Of a stretch of 64,000 nucleotides of DNA, positions 13,437 through 23,475 are shown piece after piece (the stretch's first letter is position 1; each line of letters begins with the position of its first letter). The translations under genes and the position numbers were made by a program. The notes below the pieces were generated by a model. It was given only the letters and a program-made list of their open reading frames with translations. It was not told where the DNA came from and ran no database searches. The stretch is from Nitrospirota bacterium (lineage in GTDB: Bacteria; Nitrospirota; Thermodesulfovibrionia; Thermodesulfovibrionales; UBA9159), in assembly GCA_963699545.1 (NCBI GenBank), contig CAVOUE010000006.1:192001-256000 (forward strand), given 5' to 3'.

Positions 13437-13500
13437 AGCAAGAGAAGTTCCTTGCTTTTTGCTCTTTTGAAATGCTAAACTTTTTGCACCGAAATCAAGT

Positions 13501-13617
<117 letters not shown>

Positions 13618-18687: not shown

Positions 18688-18909
18688 TTAGCGAAGGTCT
18701 TTATCGGTGAGGATTCCTTTCTTTTTTGCCTTTCTCGACCAGTAACCCTGTATCTCCTTGAGTTCCTTTCCCAGCCTTTGACTTCTTGCGATACGGAGGG
18801 CATCCTGGATGATCCCGCTCAGCGTCTTCCCTTTTTCAGCGGCCATGTCTTCAGCCTCTTTCGCAAGGTCAGGGGGAAGAGAAATAGTCCTCCTTACAGC
18901 TGTCGCCAT
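18688..18909 (-). CDS. ribbon-helix-helix (CopG) antitoxin-like protein, toxin partner absent
   Basis: RRTISLPPDLAKEAEDMAAEKGKTLSGIIQDALR...KAKKKGILTDKDL; SD AGGAGG. Confidence 0.75.
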   Translation of the reverse strand: MATAVRRTISLPPDLAKEAEDMAAEKGKTLSGIIQDALRIARSQRLGKELKEIQGYWSRKAKKKGILTDKDLR

Positions 18910-18980
18910 GCCATCACCTCCTGGTATGAATAAATACTGCCACAACCTGCGAGGAAAGACAACCATACCCGCCTCGTGAC

Positions 18981-19026: not shown

Positions 19027-19050
19027 CTGGTTTTCTTCCCTTGTCGGGTA

Positions 19051-19431
19051 TCACAAGCCATCCAATTCCTTAAGGGCATCCTCCAGTTCTCGAATGGTGG
19101 CTTGCGATTGTCTAAGCACTTTATTGAGCATATCGGGATATTTCTTAACCACCTCCACCATTTTGTTCCATCCTTCTTTGCTCAATCGATATTCACCTTT
19201 TCGAATAAAGTCCATGTATCCTTTGTCTCGCATATTTTGGATAGTTTTTTGGATAGTCTGTTCAGGCTTTTCAGGACTTTCTTTGTGACCAAGCATAGCC
19301 GTAAGGTTAACTGCTAAATCAAGATTTTCGGCTGACATAAGCTGACGACGCAAGAAAATGCGATTGTCGTGGCTCAGCATCTTATTAATAATCAAAAATA
19401 CAGCAGTTCTCCCAGTTTGACCTCTCAACAA
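19051..19431 (-). CDS. winged-helix protein resembling the DpnI/Dam-replacing C-terminal wH domain
   Basis: PEQTIQKTIQNMRDKGYMDFIRKGEYRL resembles the DpnI-type KIRQQLQxLRDKxxIEFxGRGxYR motif; start uncertain (TTG). Confidence 0.55.
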   Translation of the reverse strand: MLRGQTGRTAVFLIINKMLSHDNRIFLRRQLMSAENLDLAVNLTAMLGHKESPEKPEQTIQKTIQNMRDKGYMDFIRKGEYRLSKEGWNKMVEVVKKYPDMLNKVLRQSQATIRELEDALKELDGL

Positions 19432-19476
19432 GTCTCGTGATTTCTGGCATCTCTACTTCCTTTCTGTTCCACCTTT

Positions 19477-19674
19477 TCACTTGGATTTTCTCTTACCCTC
19501 TTCTTCCATGAATGCAGCGAATTCATCGATGGAAACTCCGTACCACTTCTTTGAGTTTTTTCTTGCCCAGTGCACGCCGCTCGGCTTGATGCGGATGTGG
19601 CCAACAACCTTGTTTCCATCATCCACAATCTTAAAATCATGAAACTTTTCTGGACTAAATCTGTTCGTTGACAT
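19477..19674 (-). CDS. small hypothetical protein (65 aa)
   Basis: SD AAGGAGG, 14 nt after the radical SAM stop; beta-rich then helical sequence. Confidence 0.75.
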   Translation of the reverse strand: MSTNRFSPEKFHDFKIVDDGNKVVGHIRIKPSGVHWARKNSKKWYGVSIDEFAAFMEEEGKRKSK

Positions 19675-19688
19675 CGTGATCCTCCTTC

Positions 19689-20810
19689 TTACTCAGAATA
19701 GACCTCTCGTGGAGTTGTGATATATCTTCTCTCGACTCCGTCAATATATCGTCCAGCTGGCAAATCGAGCATAATAGCGATGTTCTGTCTTCTTACAGCT
19801 CTTCTAAAAGCCCTGACCTGTTTATCTGTCCAGCCTTTGTGAATATAATACTCGCTTTCGTCCTGCCTCTTGGCATTTGGCCTGTAGTTATCAGAAATAC
19901 TATCCAACGGTCTAAACCTACAATCTATCACTCTGACTTGCCATCTGCGGCAAGCATCGAGTTTTGCTCTCATCTCCCCGTATGACAAATCATGGTTGAA
20001 GAGCACGAAAACAAATATATCGTCCGCCCGAAATTCTGCATCTCTTAATACCTGTATCTGCTCTTTGATTTTTGGCCAATGTGTATAAGGTCCGTCCCAT
20101 GCGATACGAGGATGCTGAAAGCGTGCTTTCTTTAAGTAAGTAGCAATTTCAGGATATTTAATAAGAATTCGCCCATCCAGGCCACTTTGACTCTCGCAAC
20201 GTACTCTGCTTTGATCAGGGAATTTGAAGTTTGTTATTTCAGAAAGGATATCTTTGATATAAGGGTTGGCAAGAAGATTATTGTCATAGAAAACAATCTT
20301 CTTTTTCCTGATTTCATCTTTGACACTTTTTTTATATGTGACATCAGGTTCGATTTTCCATGTGCCACAAAAATTGCATTTTCTGAAGCAGCCTCTCGAA
20401 GCGTGGACAATTTGATAGTCCACATTTACCAAATCATAGGCCGGTTTCAAGTTTTCCGCCTTCCCTTCTCCGTAAAGACCCGGTCTCACATAGTCGCACC
20501 CTGATGCCTTCGCATGTTCAGGCATCAAGGATGCATATATCCCCCCCACCTCCATTCTTGCGCTGGGATAAAGCTCTTTATAATACTTGACACTTTCCCA
20601 AACTTGCCTTGACCAGTACGTGAAAAGAGATGTTACTTTTATTTCATCGGGATAGCTCTTTGCCTCAAAGTTGCCTCGATGTAATTCAACGCTGTCCCCA
20701 ATGCTTCTATGATAAGCGGCGATCTTTAAAAGACCAATGGGTAAAAAGTTACAGTGGTTCTTGCTCTTTGCAGGAATCGGGAAATTAGGTTCGACAAGCA
20801 ATATATTCAT
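19689..20810 (-). CDS. radical SAM protein with B12-binding-like N-terminal domain
   Basis: LPIGLLKIAAY, VGGIYASLMP, SRGCFRKCNFC (CxxxCxxC), YDNNLL. Confidence 0.88.
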   Translation of the reverse strand: MNILLVEPNFPIPAKSKNHCNFLPIGLLKIAAYHRSIGDSVELHRGNFEAKSYPDEIKVTSLFTYWSRQVWESVKYYKELYPSARMEVGGIYASLMPEHAKASGCDYVRPGLYGEGKAENLKPAYDLVNVDYQIVHASRGCFRKCNFCGTWKIEPDVTYKKSVKDEIRKKKIVFYDNNLLANPYIKDILSEITNFKFPDQSRVRCESQSGLDGRILIKYPEIATYLKKARFQHPRIAWDGPYTHWPKIKEQIQVLRDAEFRADDIFVFVLFNHDLSYGEMRAKLDACRRWQVRVIDCRFRPLDSISDNYRPNAKRQDESEYYIHKGWTDKQVRAFRRAVRRQNIAIMLDLPAGRYIDGVERRYITTPREVYSE

Positions 20811-22234
20811 CTCAATTTACCATTTGTCAGAACATAGTTATATATGTTTTCAAAAATGGTAATTGCATTATTCGGGGATAACTTAATATCGGTTGGATGT
20901 GCGCAATCGCACCGGGTCTGATAATTTCCTCGAAGAGCGTTAAATTGTGTTACCGTCAGTATTTTTTTATAAACCAGATAGCATAATAAATGCAAGTCAT
21001 TGCTTCGGATTAGGAGCTCATCGAGAGAAGAAATGTTTTTCTGAAAGTCCTTCGCAAAATGTTTCCATGCTGATGTCCGGTTATCAAACATCGCCTGAGT
21101 AGCGTCATTAAAGTCTTTAAGATTCGTGCCAACATATTCCAAAATTCTACTGATACAACATGACCAAATCATTAAAGTGGATGCCTTAAAGCAGTGTATT
21201 TCAAGGCAAAATAATGCTTCAGAAATATATTCATACTCGTTTTCCGTAAAACTGCCGCCTATTTTTTCAATAGCGGTTCTAATATCAGTTATGGATGCCT
21301 GCTGTTTGACTGACACTTTTATAGTTCGAGGACTGTAAACCAAAGGTGATGTGTATTTCATCCTCTTTTTTAAGCCCGGCTTAGTGGCTGGCTTTCTTAG
21401 CCCCTTTTTGGTCTTCTTCGAAGGTTCCGTAAGGTTCTTGAATTCACCGAGAGTTTCGCTGAGGGACTTTTCCTTTTTCTCCAAGAAATTGATCAGCAAA
21501 TCTTCAATTTCACTCTTTGGCTTGTCATGTGAGAAAACTTCCTTAAATTCATCCATGAGGAAACGCGTATTTATTAGCTTCCCTTCCAAAGCCTTCTGTA
21601 TCAGAATTTCCCGTACTTTGTCCTCGCCATATTTTTTGTAGATATCAGAATATTTCTTGCGAAGAGGGCTAATAAAGTTCGCCTCTATCTGAACTAGATA
21701 ACTCATGGACAATTCCTTGGCAAGCACCCTCTCTATTATTTTGTCATCGTATTTGATCAACCTTAAAAGATCAGTAATTTCATGTGAGGTATGTGAAGTC
21801 ACCTCCTCGACATTTTTTCTAATGGCGGCTTCTGTTATGTGAGGATTTGCTTCTTTAAGATCGAAGATAATTTTCTTAATCGCCTTGGTTTCTGCGGCCT
21901 TATCCCAATTTTCCCTTAACATATGAACTTGATATGCCAAGATGCGGCCGTCAGTGTCATCTTTAGCTATCAAGACGGGGACGTGGGATAGCTCCCCCGC
22001 AAGCGATGCCCTAAGCCTTCTTTCCCCATCTATAAGAATATAGGAATCAGCTTTCTTGACGTCAGGTTTCACAATCAATGGCTCCAGAATTCCATATTCC
22101 TTTATGGAGTTAACTAATTTACTGAACTGGGGAGATCCCATTATTTGCTTTTCCGAGAGTCCTCTGGGATTATTCTTATCGAAGGAAATATTCTGGGGGA
22201 TGATAAAATGAAGTTTTCTTTGCAATGTTTTCAT
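20807..22234 (-). CDS. ParB/Srx N-terminal domain protein with C-terminal HEPN/DUF4145-like domain
   Basis: LVNSIKEYGILEPLIV, LIDGERRLRA (ParB); EYISEALFCLE...QTRCDCAHP (Rx4H); ATGA overlap with the radical SAM gene. Confidence 0.75.
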   Translation of the reverse strand: MKTLQRKLHFIIPQNISFDKNNPRGLSEKQIMGSPQFSKLVNSIKEYGILEPLIVKPDVKKADSYILIDGERRLRASLAGELSHVPVLIAKDDTDGRILAYQVHMLRENWDKAAETKAIKKIIFDLKEANPHITEAAIRKNVEEVTSHTSHEITDLLRLIKYDDKIIERVLAKELSMSYLVQIEANFISPLRKKYSDIYKKYGEDKVREILIQKALEGKLINTRFLMDEFKEVFSHDKPKSEIEDLLINFLEKKEKSLSETLGEFKNLTEPSKKTKKGLRKPATKPGLKKRMKYTSPLVYSPRTIKVSVKQQASITDIRTAIEKIGGSFTENEYEYISEALFCLEIHCFKASTLMIWSCCISRILEYVGTNLKDFNDATQAMFDNRTSAWKHFAKDFQKNISSLDELLIRSNDLHLLCYLVYKKILTVTQFNALRGNYQTRCDCAHPTDIKLSPNNAITIFENIYNYVLTNGKLR

Positions 22235-22612: not shown

Positions 22613-23149
22613 TCACTTTCTCCGCAGTCTTTTAAGGAACGCTTGATATTTTTCCCCATGTTCTTCTTTTTCCGACCACCGCTTCACTTCTGAAAGGCTC
22701 ACCTTTTGAAGCTTGGCGACCATGAGCGCCTGCTCCAGCGCCTGCGGGTCATTCCAGTGGTAATAAGCCGCCAATCTGTCCTTCACGCTGTCTGTTGGTG
22801 TCAGTAGCACCACCGTGCCAAGCCTTGTCTTCAGCTTCTCTTTGCCCTTGAGTGGTTCACTGCCTACCGCAGCAGGTGGGGAAACAAATTCAATAAAGAA
22901 AGGGCAGTCGCTGCGCATGAAATGGCGTGAACTTTCCTTCCGGAAACCGGCCTCCTCCATGACAGAGGTCACTTTCTTTATAGTCGCATGAGCGACGAAA
23001 TCAAGATCGAAAGACATGTATCTGTTCTTCGTGTAAATGGAAACACAGGCGCCGCCCACAAGGATCGCGTCGATCCCTTTTTCCTGAAGTTTTTCAGATA
23101 TGACCGCAGCCAGTTCCTTAATCCCTATCTGCTTCCAGTCAATGCTCAC
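22613..23149 (-). CDS. nucleotidyltransferase-fold protein (putative TA toxin)
   Basis: AILVGGACVSIY...SFDLDFV Pol-beta-type NTase motif; GTGA overlap with upstream wHTH. Confidence 0.7.
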   Translation of the reverse strand: MSIDWKQIGIKELAAVISEKLQEKGIDAILVGGACVSIYTKNRYMSFDLDFVAHATIKKVTSVMEEAGFRKESSRHFMRSDCPFFIEFVSPPAAVGSEPLKGKEKLKTRLGTVVLLTPTDSVKDRLAAYYHWNDPQALEQALMVAKLQKVSLSEVKRWSEKEEHGEKYQAFLKRLRRK

Positions 23150-23475
23150 AGCGGCTTGCCCGCCCTTCTCGGCCTCGTGCGCCTGCTGTAAAACTTCTCC
23201 CTTTCCTTCTCCGGTATGAATTCGTATGCCCTTGCAATCAGGGCTCTCAACTCCTCCAAAAAAGGATACCTCGGGTTAAGCGTATATATTCTCACCCCGC
23301 CCACAATACGGCTTACCACGATCCCGGCATTTTCGAGCCGCCTCAGCTGCTGCTGAATCTTGTTCACCGGTTCTCCAAAGGTCTTCGCCATACCGGAGGC
23401 GTAGCCTTCTCCGTATACGTGGAGGGTAAAGAGTATCTTTTCGATTGTGATATTGCCGAACATTCCTTCAAGCAT
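23146..23475 (-). CDS. ArsR-like winged-helix DNA-binding protein
   Basis: GYASGMAKTFG..VNKIQQQLRRLENAGIVVSR..GGVRIYTLNPRYPF. Confidence 0.8.
   Translation of the reverse strand: MLEGMFGNITIEKILFTLHVYGEGYASGMAKTFGEPVNKIQQQLRRLENAGIVVSRIVGGVRIYTLNPRYPFLEELRALIARAYEFIPEKEREKFYSRRTRPRRAGKPL

Follow-up and report, generated by a model that had tools for sequence, protein, structure and literature searches.

A conserved ParB-HEPN and radical SAM gene pair in a low-GC insertion of a Nitrospirota genome resembles an undescribed modification-based defence module

A 64,000-nt stretch of the genome of a Nitrospirota bacterium (NCBI GenBank assembly GCA_963699545.1, contig CAVOUE010000006.1, positions 192,001 to 256,000)—hereafter the window—carries at positions 19051–22234 a locus of four open reading frames (ORFs), arranged head to tail on the minus strand, whose first two genes look like an undescribed modification-based defence module. 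Gene 1 (20807–22234, 475 aa), which is preceded by a strong Shine-Dalgarno sequence (GAGGAG), encodes a ParB_N domain with a helix-turn-helix (HTH), a disordered linker and a C-terminal domain of probable HEPN fold. Its stop codon overlaps the start codon of gene 2 in an ATGA at 20807–20810, read directly from the sequence, and gene 2 (19689–20810, 373 aa) encodes a divergent radical S-adenosylmethionine (SAM) enzyme with a cobalamin-binding-like N-domain. Two small low-GC neighbours follow: gene 3 (19477–19674, 65 aa), with a good Shine-Dalgarno sequence, and gene 4 (19051–19431, 126 aa from a TTG start as called, although this start is uncertain), which is winged-helix-like. The GC content is 0.406 for 19051–22234 and 0.534 across the window, and values of 0.44 or below occur only in sliding windows that overlap the locus (305 windows of the same size, standard deviation 0.03). 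The ORFs, the composition and direct reading all bear out an earlier reading of this DNA, made from the sequence only, that four co-oriented AT-rich genes lie here with an ATGA between the first two.

Residues 1–270 of gene 1 (21425–22234, minus strand) make up a ParB/Srx nucleotide-binding domain and an HTH DNA-binding domain. Pfam ParB_N matches residues 13–91 with 44.3 bits against a cut-off of 26.3 (47.3 bits in a whole-genome search) and was present in all 74 gene 1 homologues scanned. Homologues number 211 at E ≤ 0.001, among 8000 candidates scored, and mostly combine PF27235 with PF02195. In the motif GERRLRA (G70–A76, 22007–22027, minus strand), G70, E71, R72 and R73 are invariant across the 74 homologues, while L74, R75 and A76 are kept in at least 90% of them; we take this GERRLRA/GERRxRA motif to be the CTP- or nucleotide-binding box of ParB. 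An AlphaFold2 model of gene 1 (mean predicted local distance difference test score, pLDDT, 84.5) has two well-folded parts and a disordered, lysine-rich linker at residues 272–303. The N-terminal part of the model, HTH included, finds its best Foldseek matches in the PDB among CTP- or CDP-bound ParB, Noc and KorB (E 4.5e-7 to 1e-5), and VIA aligned residues 25–228 with KorB (Z 13.2) and Spo0J (Z 8.9); the predicted fold is that of a ParB N-domain plus HTH. The ParB/Srx N-domain with GERRLRA noticed in the sequence-only reading is thus confirmed by a Pfam match above cut-off and by the invariance of GERR. Because the genome holds a separate canonical ParB elsewhere (contig C3, 114.6 bits), gene 1 is an accessory ParB.

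The C-terminal part of gene 1 (residues 306–475, 20810–21319, minus strand) is a probable HEPN-fold domain of Pfam PF27235, a family named for the uncharacterised protein AF_1680. VIA aligned residues 327–475 with a series of HEPN structures—AF_0298 (Z 10.4), AbiA (9.7), sacsin HEPN (8.9), SO_3166 (8.7), Csm6 (8.6), HEPN-MNT toxins (8.4), AbiV (7.3) and RnlA (6.9)—and in the list of matches for gene 1 these are interleaved only with ParB-type matches to the N-terminal domain. Near the C-terminus lies the motif R441-x4-H446 (RCDCAH, 20897–20914, minus strand; RCDCAHP with the next residue), in which H446, P447 and T448 are invariant among the 74 homologues and R441 is present in at least 90%. 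Searching with the C-domain alone among 1.84 billion proteins yielded 90 further representatives, 88 of which have an R-x4-H at the equivalent site (consensus RN..AHP). The Z values are moderate for a helical bundle, but the conserved R-x4-H argues the same way; together, the structure alignments and the conservation of the motif support the earlier suggestion of a HEPN-type C-domain with an Rx4H motif. Weak Ribonuc_2-5A matches were found in 6 of the 74 homologues (best E 2.5e-4). The PF27235 domain is also C-terminal in GHKL ATPases of about 610–630 aa, and hhalign matched the C-domain of gene 1 to the C-termini of two such fusions, L009 and L010, at 98.9% and 98.5%; the motif in the GHKL fusions reads RNNCAHPT and RHYCAHPT. 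As a side observation, a PF27235-type RN..AHP domain stands at the C-terminus of many proteins of 250–290 aa (P0256–P0329) whose N-domain has no Pfam family, and single RN..AHP-domain proteins are fused to LRR (leucine-rich) repeats or to a DnaJ-type zinc finger.

The assignment of gene 2 to the radical SAM superfamily rests on motif and predicted fold. The three cysteines of its CxxxCxxC cluster motif (C141, C145 and C148; 20367–20390, minus strand) are invariant in 24 of 24 aligned homologues and in each of 85 family members, drawn from cellular as well as viral loci. Pfam Radical_SAM (PF04055) scores 18.6 bits on gene 2, under its cut-off of 29.5, with some homologues carrying a PF04055 match, and Pfam B12-binding scores 15 bits, under a cut-off of 32.1. 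The AlphaFold2 model (pLDDT 86.8, predicted template modelling score 0.83) comprises an N-terminal domain of cobalamin-binding type and a radical SAM core. VIA ranked MgmA highest (Z 21.9, 309 residues aligned, root-mean-square deviation 3.5), followed by AprD4 (21.8), MiaB (18.7), TsrM (18.1) and RimO (18.0), with viperin (9.1) and spore photoproduct lyase (8.8) as weak matches. Foldseek, with matches at E of about 1e-9, put MiaB with tRNA at the top (E 1.2e-9). OxsB is also among the close folds, and residues 1–117 align to corrinoid proteins (1y80, Z 11.2; AerR, Z 12.3). A CxxxCxxC radical SAM protein with a B12-like N-domain, as first read from the sequence, agrees with both the invariant cysteines and these fold matches. 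AprD4 is a dehydratase that is said to do without cobalamin; since this equally close enzyme is a dehydratase, cobalamin use by gene 2 is not settled by fold alone.

Several more specific identities were examined for gene 2. Methylthiotransferases carry three conserved N-domain cysteines for an auxiliary cluster, but the conserved columns of gene 2 residues 1–130 include no cysteine, so a methylthiotransferase (MiaB/RimO) identity was ruled out. An auxiliary Fe-S cluster or sulfur insertion via C205, C287 and C297 was likewise rejected: of 41 close sequences only 20 have C205, and the distant branch has other residues at all three positions. A basic C-terminal helix (QVRAFRRAVRRQN) and conserved arginines would fit nucleic-acid binding. 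The family profile of gene 2 has no sequence relative in the PDB at E ≤ 0.1, and a fold search of BFVD returned generic phage B12-like radical SAM proteins only. Its homologues number 2389 at E ≤ 0.001 (3350 candidates), in clusters from bacteria, archaea and phages, and it matches phage family phrog_9298 at E 2.1e-33. The enzyme is also the better conserved of the two proteins, with a top non-self identity of 86% against 62% for ParB-HEPN.

The two genes recur together. Metagenome contigs scanned with the gene 1 alignment gave 79 loci, 26 of which (L082–L107) have the ParB-HEPN architecture, 24 of these with sequence downstream. A radical SAM gene abuts ParB-HEPN in 23 of the 24—20 with a −4 overlap, two with −1 and one detected by tblastn only—and in the remaining locus (L090) three genes, a GHKL ATPase and two small ones, are inserted between ParB-HEPN and the radical SAM gene downstream. 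Two loci from species-representative genomes, L004 and L005, show the same 4-nt overlap. A search for the neighbourhood of ParB-HEPN and radical SAM in other genomes had been recommended when the locus was first read, and the pair does co-occur in many. What lies beyond it varies: among 19 downstream ORFs scanned, seven were of defence or toxin–antitoxin (TA) type (MNT-type nucleotidyltransferase, AIPR, patatin, Fic, DpnI, Bro-N and HsdM), two were mobile-element genes (an IS200 transposase and a resolvase), three were of housekeeping type and seven had no family. Because the downstream genes change from locus to locus and genes 3 and 4 do not recur, the conserved unit is two genes, not four.

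The radical SAM enzyme is found well beyond ParB-HEPN. Species-representative genomes scanned with an alignment of the enzyme gave 313 relatives among 600 matched stretches, of which the best 80 were used. A REase_DpnII-MboI domain replaces HEPN behind ParB_N, before the radical SAM gene, in L109 (Pfam, E 6e-26) and L112 (9e-23), and alignment with these two identified ParB-REase also in L008, L110, L111, L113, L115, L116 and L140. Elsewhere the enzyme is preceded by a ParB of about 340 aa and a protein of about 500 aa (L007, L028, L034, L036 and many of L119–L155), by a GHKL ATPase and a protein of about 340 aa (L001–L003, L011, L027) that has a profile link to DndB/DGQHR at 91–98% probability, by a GHKL ATPase fused to the PF27235 HEPN domain (L009, L010), or by a GHKL ATPase with Pfam DUF4145 (L006, E 1.2e-6). 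A SNF2 helicase and a DndB-like protein are the partners in L016, L024 and L025; a 2049-aa DEAD-MZB-PLD protein is the partner in L032 and a type IIG methylase in L043. In L013, PbeA (PADLOC, 1.5e-235), PbeB, PbeC (PADLOC, 3.5e-180) and a PbeD-sized gene are directly followed by the enzyme. Labelling of neighbours with hidden Markov models (HMMs) placed a PbeD-like gene directly upstream in 10 of the 80 genome loci, L013 included, a ParB- or DndB-like gene among the three upstream same-strand genes listed in 36, and an adjacent GHKL ATPase in 40. The ~500-aa protein between ParB and enzyme (as at L129:7018–8526, and in L120–L155) has no Pfam family and no match to the GHKL or HEPN profiles. 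The idea that one HEPN-like domain is shared by all upstream partners was discarded, as hhalign gave at most 0.4% against the 330-aa, 145-aa and 500-aa groups and only L009 and L010 match.

A distant branch of the enzyme, 27–34% identical, occurs in trios of DGQHR, radical SAM and GHKL genes, where the partner in L055 matches DndB in Pfam (5e-8) and DpdB in PADLOC (5.7e-17). One example, a tight trio of DGQHR, radical SAM and GHKL-type genes, is found on the conjugative plasmid pNL1 (L172, NC_002033.1 62242–66382), where it adjoins a PIN-like protein, another ATP-binding protein and a 769-aa DGQHR protein, all with generic annotation only. The gene 2 enzyme is nearest to those of L001 (85% identity) and L003 (84%), whose partners are a GHKL ATPase and a DndB-like protein, while the copies linked to ParB-HEPN are 64–71% identical to it; in a FastTree tree of the enzyme, read without support values, the partner types are interleaved. 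Since its closest relatives have other partners than ParB-HEPN, partners shuffle around a fixed enzyme: by these sequence comparisons the enzyme is the constant core, and ParB-HEPN is one among many partners that can be exchanged, which the first reading did not recognise.

The enzyme is also encoded on 11 viral contigs, and no gene on them matched any of ten partner HMMs. There it is found near a primase (L161), a large terminase (L163) or, in L165, an exonuclease and a second radical SAM-like protein, and in L169 it directly precedes a DNA methyltransferase. A homologue 31% identical to the enzyme occurs in Marinitoga camini virus 1. In four similar viral contigs (L164–L167, of which L164 is incomplete) the enzyme overlaps a downstream 283-aa protein (L165:2963–3811) that matches PHROGs annotated as DNA repair photolyase and may be a second enzyme of radical SAM type.

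We tentatively read genes 1 and 2 as a module akin to restriction-modification, with the radical SAM enzyme marking DNA and ParB-HEPN serving as nucleotide-gated sensor and effector, and give this reading somewhat less than an even chance. A modification enzyme is favoured because the enzyme is fixed while the nuclease swaps between HEPN and restriction folds, because the partners are of DNA-tracking or restriction type, and because phages carry the enzyme alone. In such a module, the radical SAM enzyme would be the catalytic core and would mark DNA covalently; its class-B-like fold makes a C-methyl or another radical-installed group the most likely mark. The ParB domain would bind a nucleotide, CTP by analogy, and clamp or load onto DNA through its HTH, with the HEPN tail of gene 1 as the putative effector nuclease; translational coupling suggests that the two proteins are made in fixed proportion. 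ParB-HEPN would remain inactive on self DNA that bears the mark but build up on incoming DNA that does not. Cleavage of RNA or DNA by the HEPN domain, or by the restriction-fold nuclease of sister systems, would then stop either the invader or the cell. Phages with a solo enzyme may mark their own DNA to escape, in the way of orphan methyltransferases.

A wider claim seems to us possible but doubtful: that the modifying role in a widespread, undescribed restriction-modification-like family falls to the radical SAM enzyme, whose radical-made DNA mark is read as self by interchangeable DNA-tracking partners (ParB-HEPN, ParB-REase, DndB-like with GHKL, PbeABCD and type IIG enzymes) and which phages have captured several times as anti-restriction, the form described here being a minimal one in which a CTP-gated ParB clamp directly controls a HEPN nuclease. 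If the enzyme does mark DNA, this would add a new self/non-self chemistry beside methyltransferases, phosphorothioation and 7-deazaguanine, and would explain the source of the self mark in PbeABCD-type and DndB/GHKL-type clusters that have no known modification genes. The family is broad (2389 homologue clusters), and an answer would annotate many genes now called 'Fe-S oxidoreductase' or hypothetical. In its two-gene ParB-HEPN form the module is compact enough for cloning, so that one could ask directly whether a nuclease can be gated by a ParB nucleotide switch.

A number of observations weigh against reading the pair as a DNA-marking defence module. The window is not a classic defence island: the setting among TA genes that the first reading took as typical of such islands did not hold up, as the surroundings hold an rRNA operon (8024–13617), with ordinary metabolic genes on both sides, and the only TA-like neighbours are two weak ones, a ribbon-helix-helix gene (18688–18966) and a nucleotidyltransferase/HTH pair (22613–23475). 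The solved structures nearest to gene 2 act on a protein (MgmA), an aminoglycoside (AprD4), tRNA (MiaB), tryptophan (TsrM) and a ribosomal protein (RimO), none of them on DNA; gene 2 has no recognisable DNA-recognition domain; and the enzyme is far more conserved than is usual for the DNA methyltransferases of restriction systems. HEPN domains are, to our knowledge, RNases, which fits abortive infection better than classical restriction. The HEPN matches (Z 6.9–10.4, for the full-length model) fall short of the value of about 13 that caution demands of helical bundles with this tool, and no HEPN-clan Pfam model passes threshold on the gene 1 family, in a Pfam set from which PF27235 itself is absent. 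Locus counts overstate independence because several loci are near-duplicates (L086/L107, L004/L096, L005/L106). The partner labels were built from the same loci that they count, with database matches checked on single examples, and the enzyme tree was read without support values.

Other explanations place the chemistry elsewhere. The enzyme might act on a free nucleotide or small molecule, yielding an antiviral chain terminator or a signal in the style of viperin, with the ParB domain binding the product and switching the HEPN RNase. Prokaryotic viperins are a known case of radical SAM enzymes in defence, structures of CTP-bound ParB are close to the ParB domain here, the very high conservation of the enzyme would suit a universal small substrate, and two small-molecule enzymes, AprD4 and OxsB, are among its close folds; yet we consider this unlikely, as the viperin match is weak (Z 9.1 against 21.9 for MgmA), its partners track DNA or restrict it (PbeABCD, type IIG, REase fusion, SNF2) and are not nucleotide-sensing effectors of the CARF or SAVED kind, and solo copies on 11 viral contigs, beside primase, terminase and DNA methyltransferase genes, are hard to explain for an antiviral product. 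The pairing of this enzyme with a DNase-fold domain in place of HEPN, and with PbeABCD, DndB-like, SNF2 and type IIG partners unconnected with RNA, leaves only a small probability for an RNA-centred, TA-like module in which the HEPN domain cleaves tRNA or rRNA and the enzyme, with its MiaB- and RimO-like fold, modifies that RNA, or a ribosomal component, to spare or repair the host copies. That module would make sense of the RNase activity of HEPN domains, of the tight translational coupling, which is like that of toxin-immunity pairs, and of MiaB with tRNA as top Foldseek match (E 1.2e-9; VIA Z 18.7), but the N-domain has no methylthiotransferase cysteines and C205, C287 and C297 vary within the family.

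Two further explanations we hold to be improbable. The enzyme could itself be the weapon, with ParB or other DNA-tracking partners guiding damage or irreversible modification of incoming DNA and the nucleases secondary; its position as the one constant component behind many alternative DNA-binding partners would agree with this, and spore photoproduct lyase, though a weak structural match (Z 8.8), is a precedent for radical DNA chemistry, but phages with the solo gene would then harm themselves and most partners already hold dedicated nucleases. Alternatively, and with quite as little probability, the pair may have no part in defence and instead serve a mobile element as an accessory module for DNA maintenance or epigenetics, for instance ParB-based partition or silencing with a linked enzyme, and survive here as a chromosomal remnant. 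ParB, KorB and Noc function in partition or silencing, conjugative plasmids such as pNL1 carry a distant relative, and the window is ordinary chromosome; against this, no ParA partner or replication genes stand beside the pair among the window ORFs, the genome has its own canonical ParB, and the fusions to HEPN or restriction nucleases and the defence-type neighbours elsewhere point to conflict.

The module of DNA mark and ParB-HEPN effector that we prefer has partial counterparts among known systems. Dpd (DpdA-DpdB) and DndB arrangements likewise place a ParB-superfamily gene directly before a putative modifying enzyme with which it is coupled, and hhalign gives a probability of 89% for a relation between DndB/DpdB-like partner proteins and the ParB part of gene 1. 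In Dpd, the ATPase that works with DpdA is DpdB, and we take the DndB-like link to be reminiscent of the DpdA-DpdB and Dnd arrangements. Dpd and Dnd, however, have the tRNA-guanine transglycosylase DpdA or DndA, DndC, DndD and DndE with 7-deazaguanine or sulfur-transfer genes, whereas this locus has none of these and its enzyme is a radical SAM protein; gene 1, moreover, has a classical ParB_N with GERR and a HEPN tail, and DpdB and DndB have DGQHR. No PbeA–D, DndA–E or DpdA–C was found among the window ORFs; such genes appeared only at other loci that share the enzyme. The gene 2 enzyme shares with class B-like radical SAM proteins (MgmA, TsrM, TokK, CysS), AprD4 and MiaB/RimO a Rossmann-like B12-type N-domain and a radical SAM core, but is shorter than the class B-like and methylthiotransferase enzymes (373 aa), has no N-domain cysteine triad and stands in a genomic context unlike theirs. 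With HEPN effectors (AbiA, AbiV, HEPN-MNT, Csm6, RnlA) and DUF4145, gene 1 has a predicted helical bundle and R-x4-H in common, but its C-domain, a predicted RNase, forms its own uncharacterised family, PF27235, and occurs in fusions with ParB or GHKL; its comparison by hhalign with the DUF4145 sequence of L006 gave nothing significant. Prokaryotic viperins (pVips) also bring radical SAM chemistry to defence, but as single-domain, stand-alone genes that act on NTPs (nucleoside triphosphates).

The same enzyme family follows PbeABC and a PbeD-sized gene in L013, which ties it to the PbeABCD, or CxC ABC-ATPase-DndE, systems (Xiong 2019; re-annotated in PMC10853773). This link matters because such systems, when they have no phosphorothioation genes, sometimes carry cytosine methylases in the modification role (PMC10853773, main text). 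In that main text, supplements aside, radical SAM is mentioned only for DndC, and a link to the present enzyme appears to be undescribed. Effector-ParAB immunity, modelled as a nucleotide-dependent clamp on invader DNA, likewise has ParB in conflict systems with variable fusions, but its ParB is predicted to be inactive, its C-terminal fusions are DNA-binding modules, and the present locus has no ParA; in the portion of the preprint available, radical SAM occurs only in unrelated contexts (bioRxiv 10.64898/2026.10.19.760177). In full-text searches of the literature, supplements aside, no radical SAM enzyme coupled to ParB, HEPN, DndB or GHKL partners came up, the papers returned treating radical SAM in other settings, and in the MORC paper of Iyer 2008 the words 'radical', 'Fe-S', 'ParB' and 'HEPN' occur 0 times. 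PADLOC-DB v2 holds no model for the enzyme or the pair; genes 2 and 3 have no match in it, and gene 1 matches only a type II methyltransferase model, over the ParB part (E 1.8e-4). With neither a PADLOC model nor a published description found, the initial impression that the combination is not a named system still holds. The pair may belong with modification-based or NTPase-nuclease conflict systems, and a new DNA-marking chemistry is an open possibility.

The module was acquired horizontally. This follows from its GC content of 0.406, from the distribution of the enzyme, which is present in 5 of 401 sampled genomes of the phylum, G000 included (E ≤ 1e-20), and from comparison with 20 relatives, none of which has DNA matching 19050–22234 although the flanks do match in several. 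The closest enzyme records come from Nitrospirota metagenome-assembled genomes. Direct or inverted repeats that might bound the low-GC island were short, imperfect matches, none of them convincing; no tandem repeats were found at the locus, and promoter and terminator scans stayed at chance level.

Genes 3 and 4, we propose, belong to the same low-GC insertion as cargo that has nothing to do with the pair. The first reading had joined all four genes into one system and cast the product of gene 4, taken as a DpnI-like winged helix, as the reader of the mark. The four-gene system is ruled out, as genes 3 and 4 are not conserved alongside the pair in 159 related loci, and a reader role for the winged helix has no comparative support, gene 4 being absent from the other related loci. 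By tblastn, gene 3 was not found at any of the 80 genome loci or 79 metagenome loci; no family in Pfam, PADLOC, NCBIfam or PHROG matches it at the thresholds applied, and in the protein atlas it resembles only unnamed clusters of 65–83 aa (score 0.90–0.91). For gene 4, tblastn in the 159 related loci returned a single 24-residue match, in L100, where 12 of 24 residues are shared with the C-terminal winged helix of a complete DpnI. Pfam DpnI_C scores 20.8 bits on gene 4, below its cut-off of 23, over residues 58–82 (profile positions 45–69 of 70). A word-based search found no relatives of gene 4, and its PADLOC matches are weak ones to AbiEi or CARF winged helices (E ≥ 0.0037). Gene 4 lacks a good Shine-Dalgarno sequence, and its start is uncertain because a better one belongs to an out-of-frame ORF just upstream; it may be mis-started, frameshifted or a remnant. 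That ORF, of 21 codons, lies at 19385–19450 on the minus strand and begins between genes 3 and 4, in another frame than gene 4. In L100, the complete DpnI (L100:3283–4056; Pfam DpnI 1.6e-81, DpnI_C 8.5e-32) lies 211 nt downstream of the ParB-HEPN and radical SAM pair.

Some features of the wider window were recorded in passing. The overlapping pair at 22613–23475 (minus strand) encodes a nucleotidyltransferase-like protein of 178 aa (DUF2204, E 6.7e-4) and an ArsR-type HTH protein of 109 aa that weakly matches PADLOC model PDC-M05A (6.3e-6), an arrangement that looks TA-like; it lies outside the low-GC insertion, because its DNA is conserved in the relative G003. The rRNA operon is complete, with the small-subunit rRNA at 8024–9625, tRNA-Ile at 9693–9769, tRNA-Ala at 9895–9970, the large-subunit rRNA at 10064–13305 and 5S rRNA at 13502–13617, and small ORFs without a family within it are spurious. 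The large-subunit match spans 3242 nt against a model of 2925 positions, which leaves about 300 nt extra, possibly an intervening sequence. At 4002–5309 (minus strand), adjacent ORFs of 236 and 141 aa correspond to different portions of a class I tRNA synthetase, a catalytic/anticodon part and a LeuRS editing domain, and could represent a split or frameshifted gene or an assembly error.

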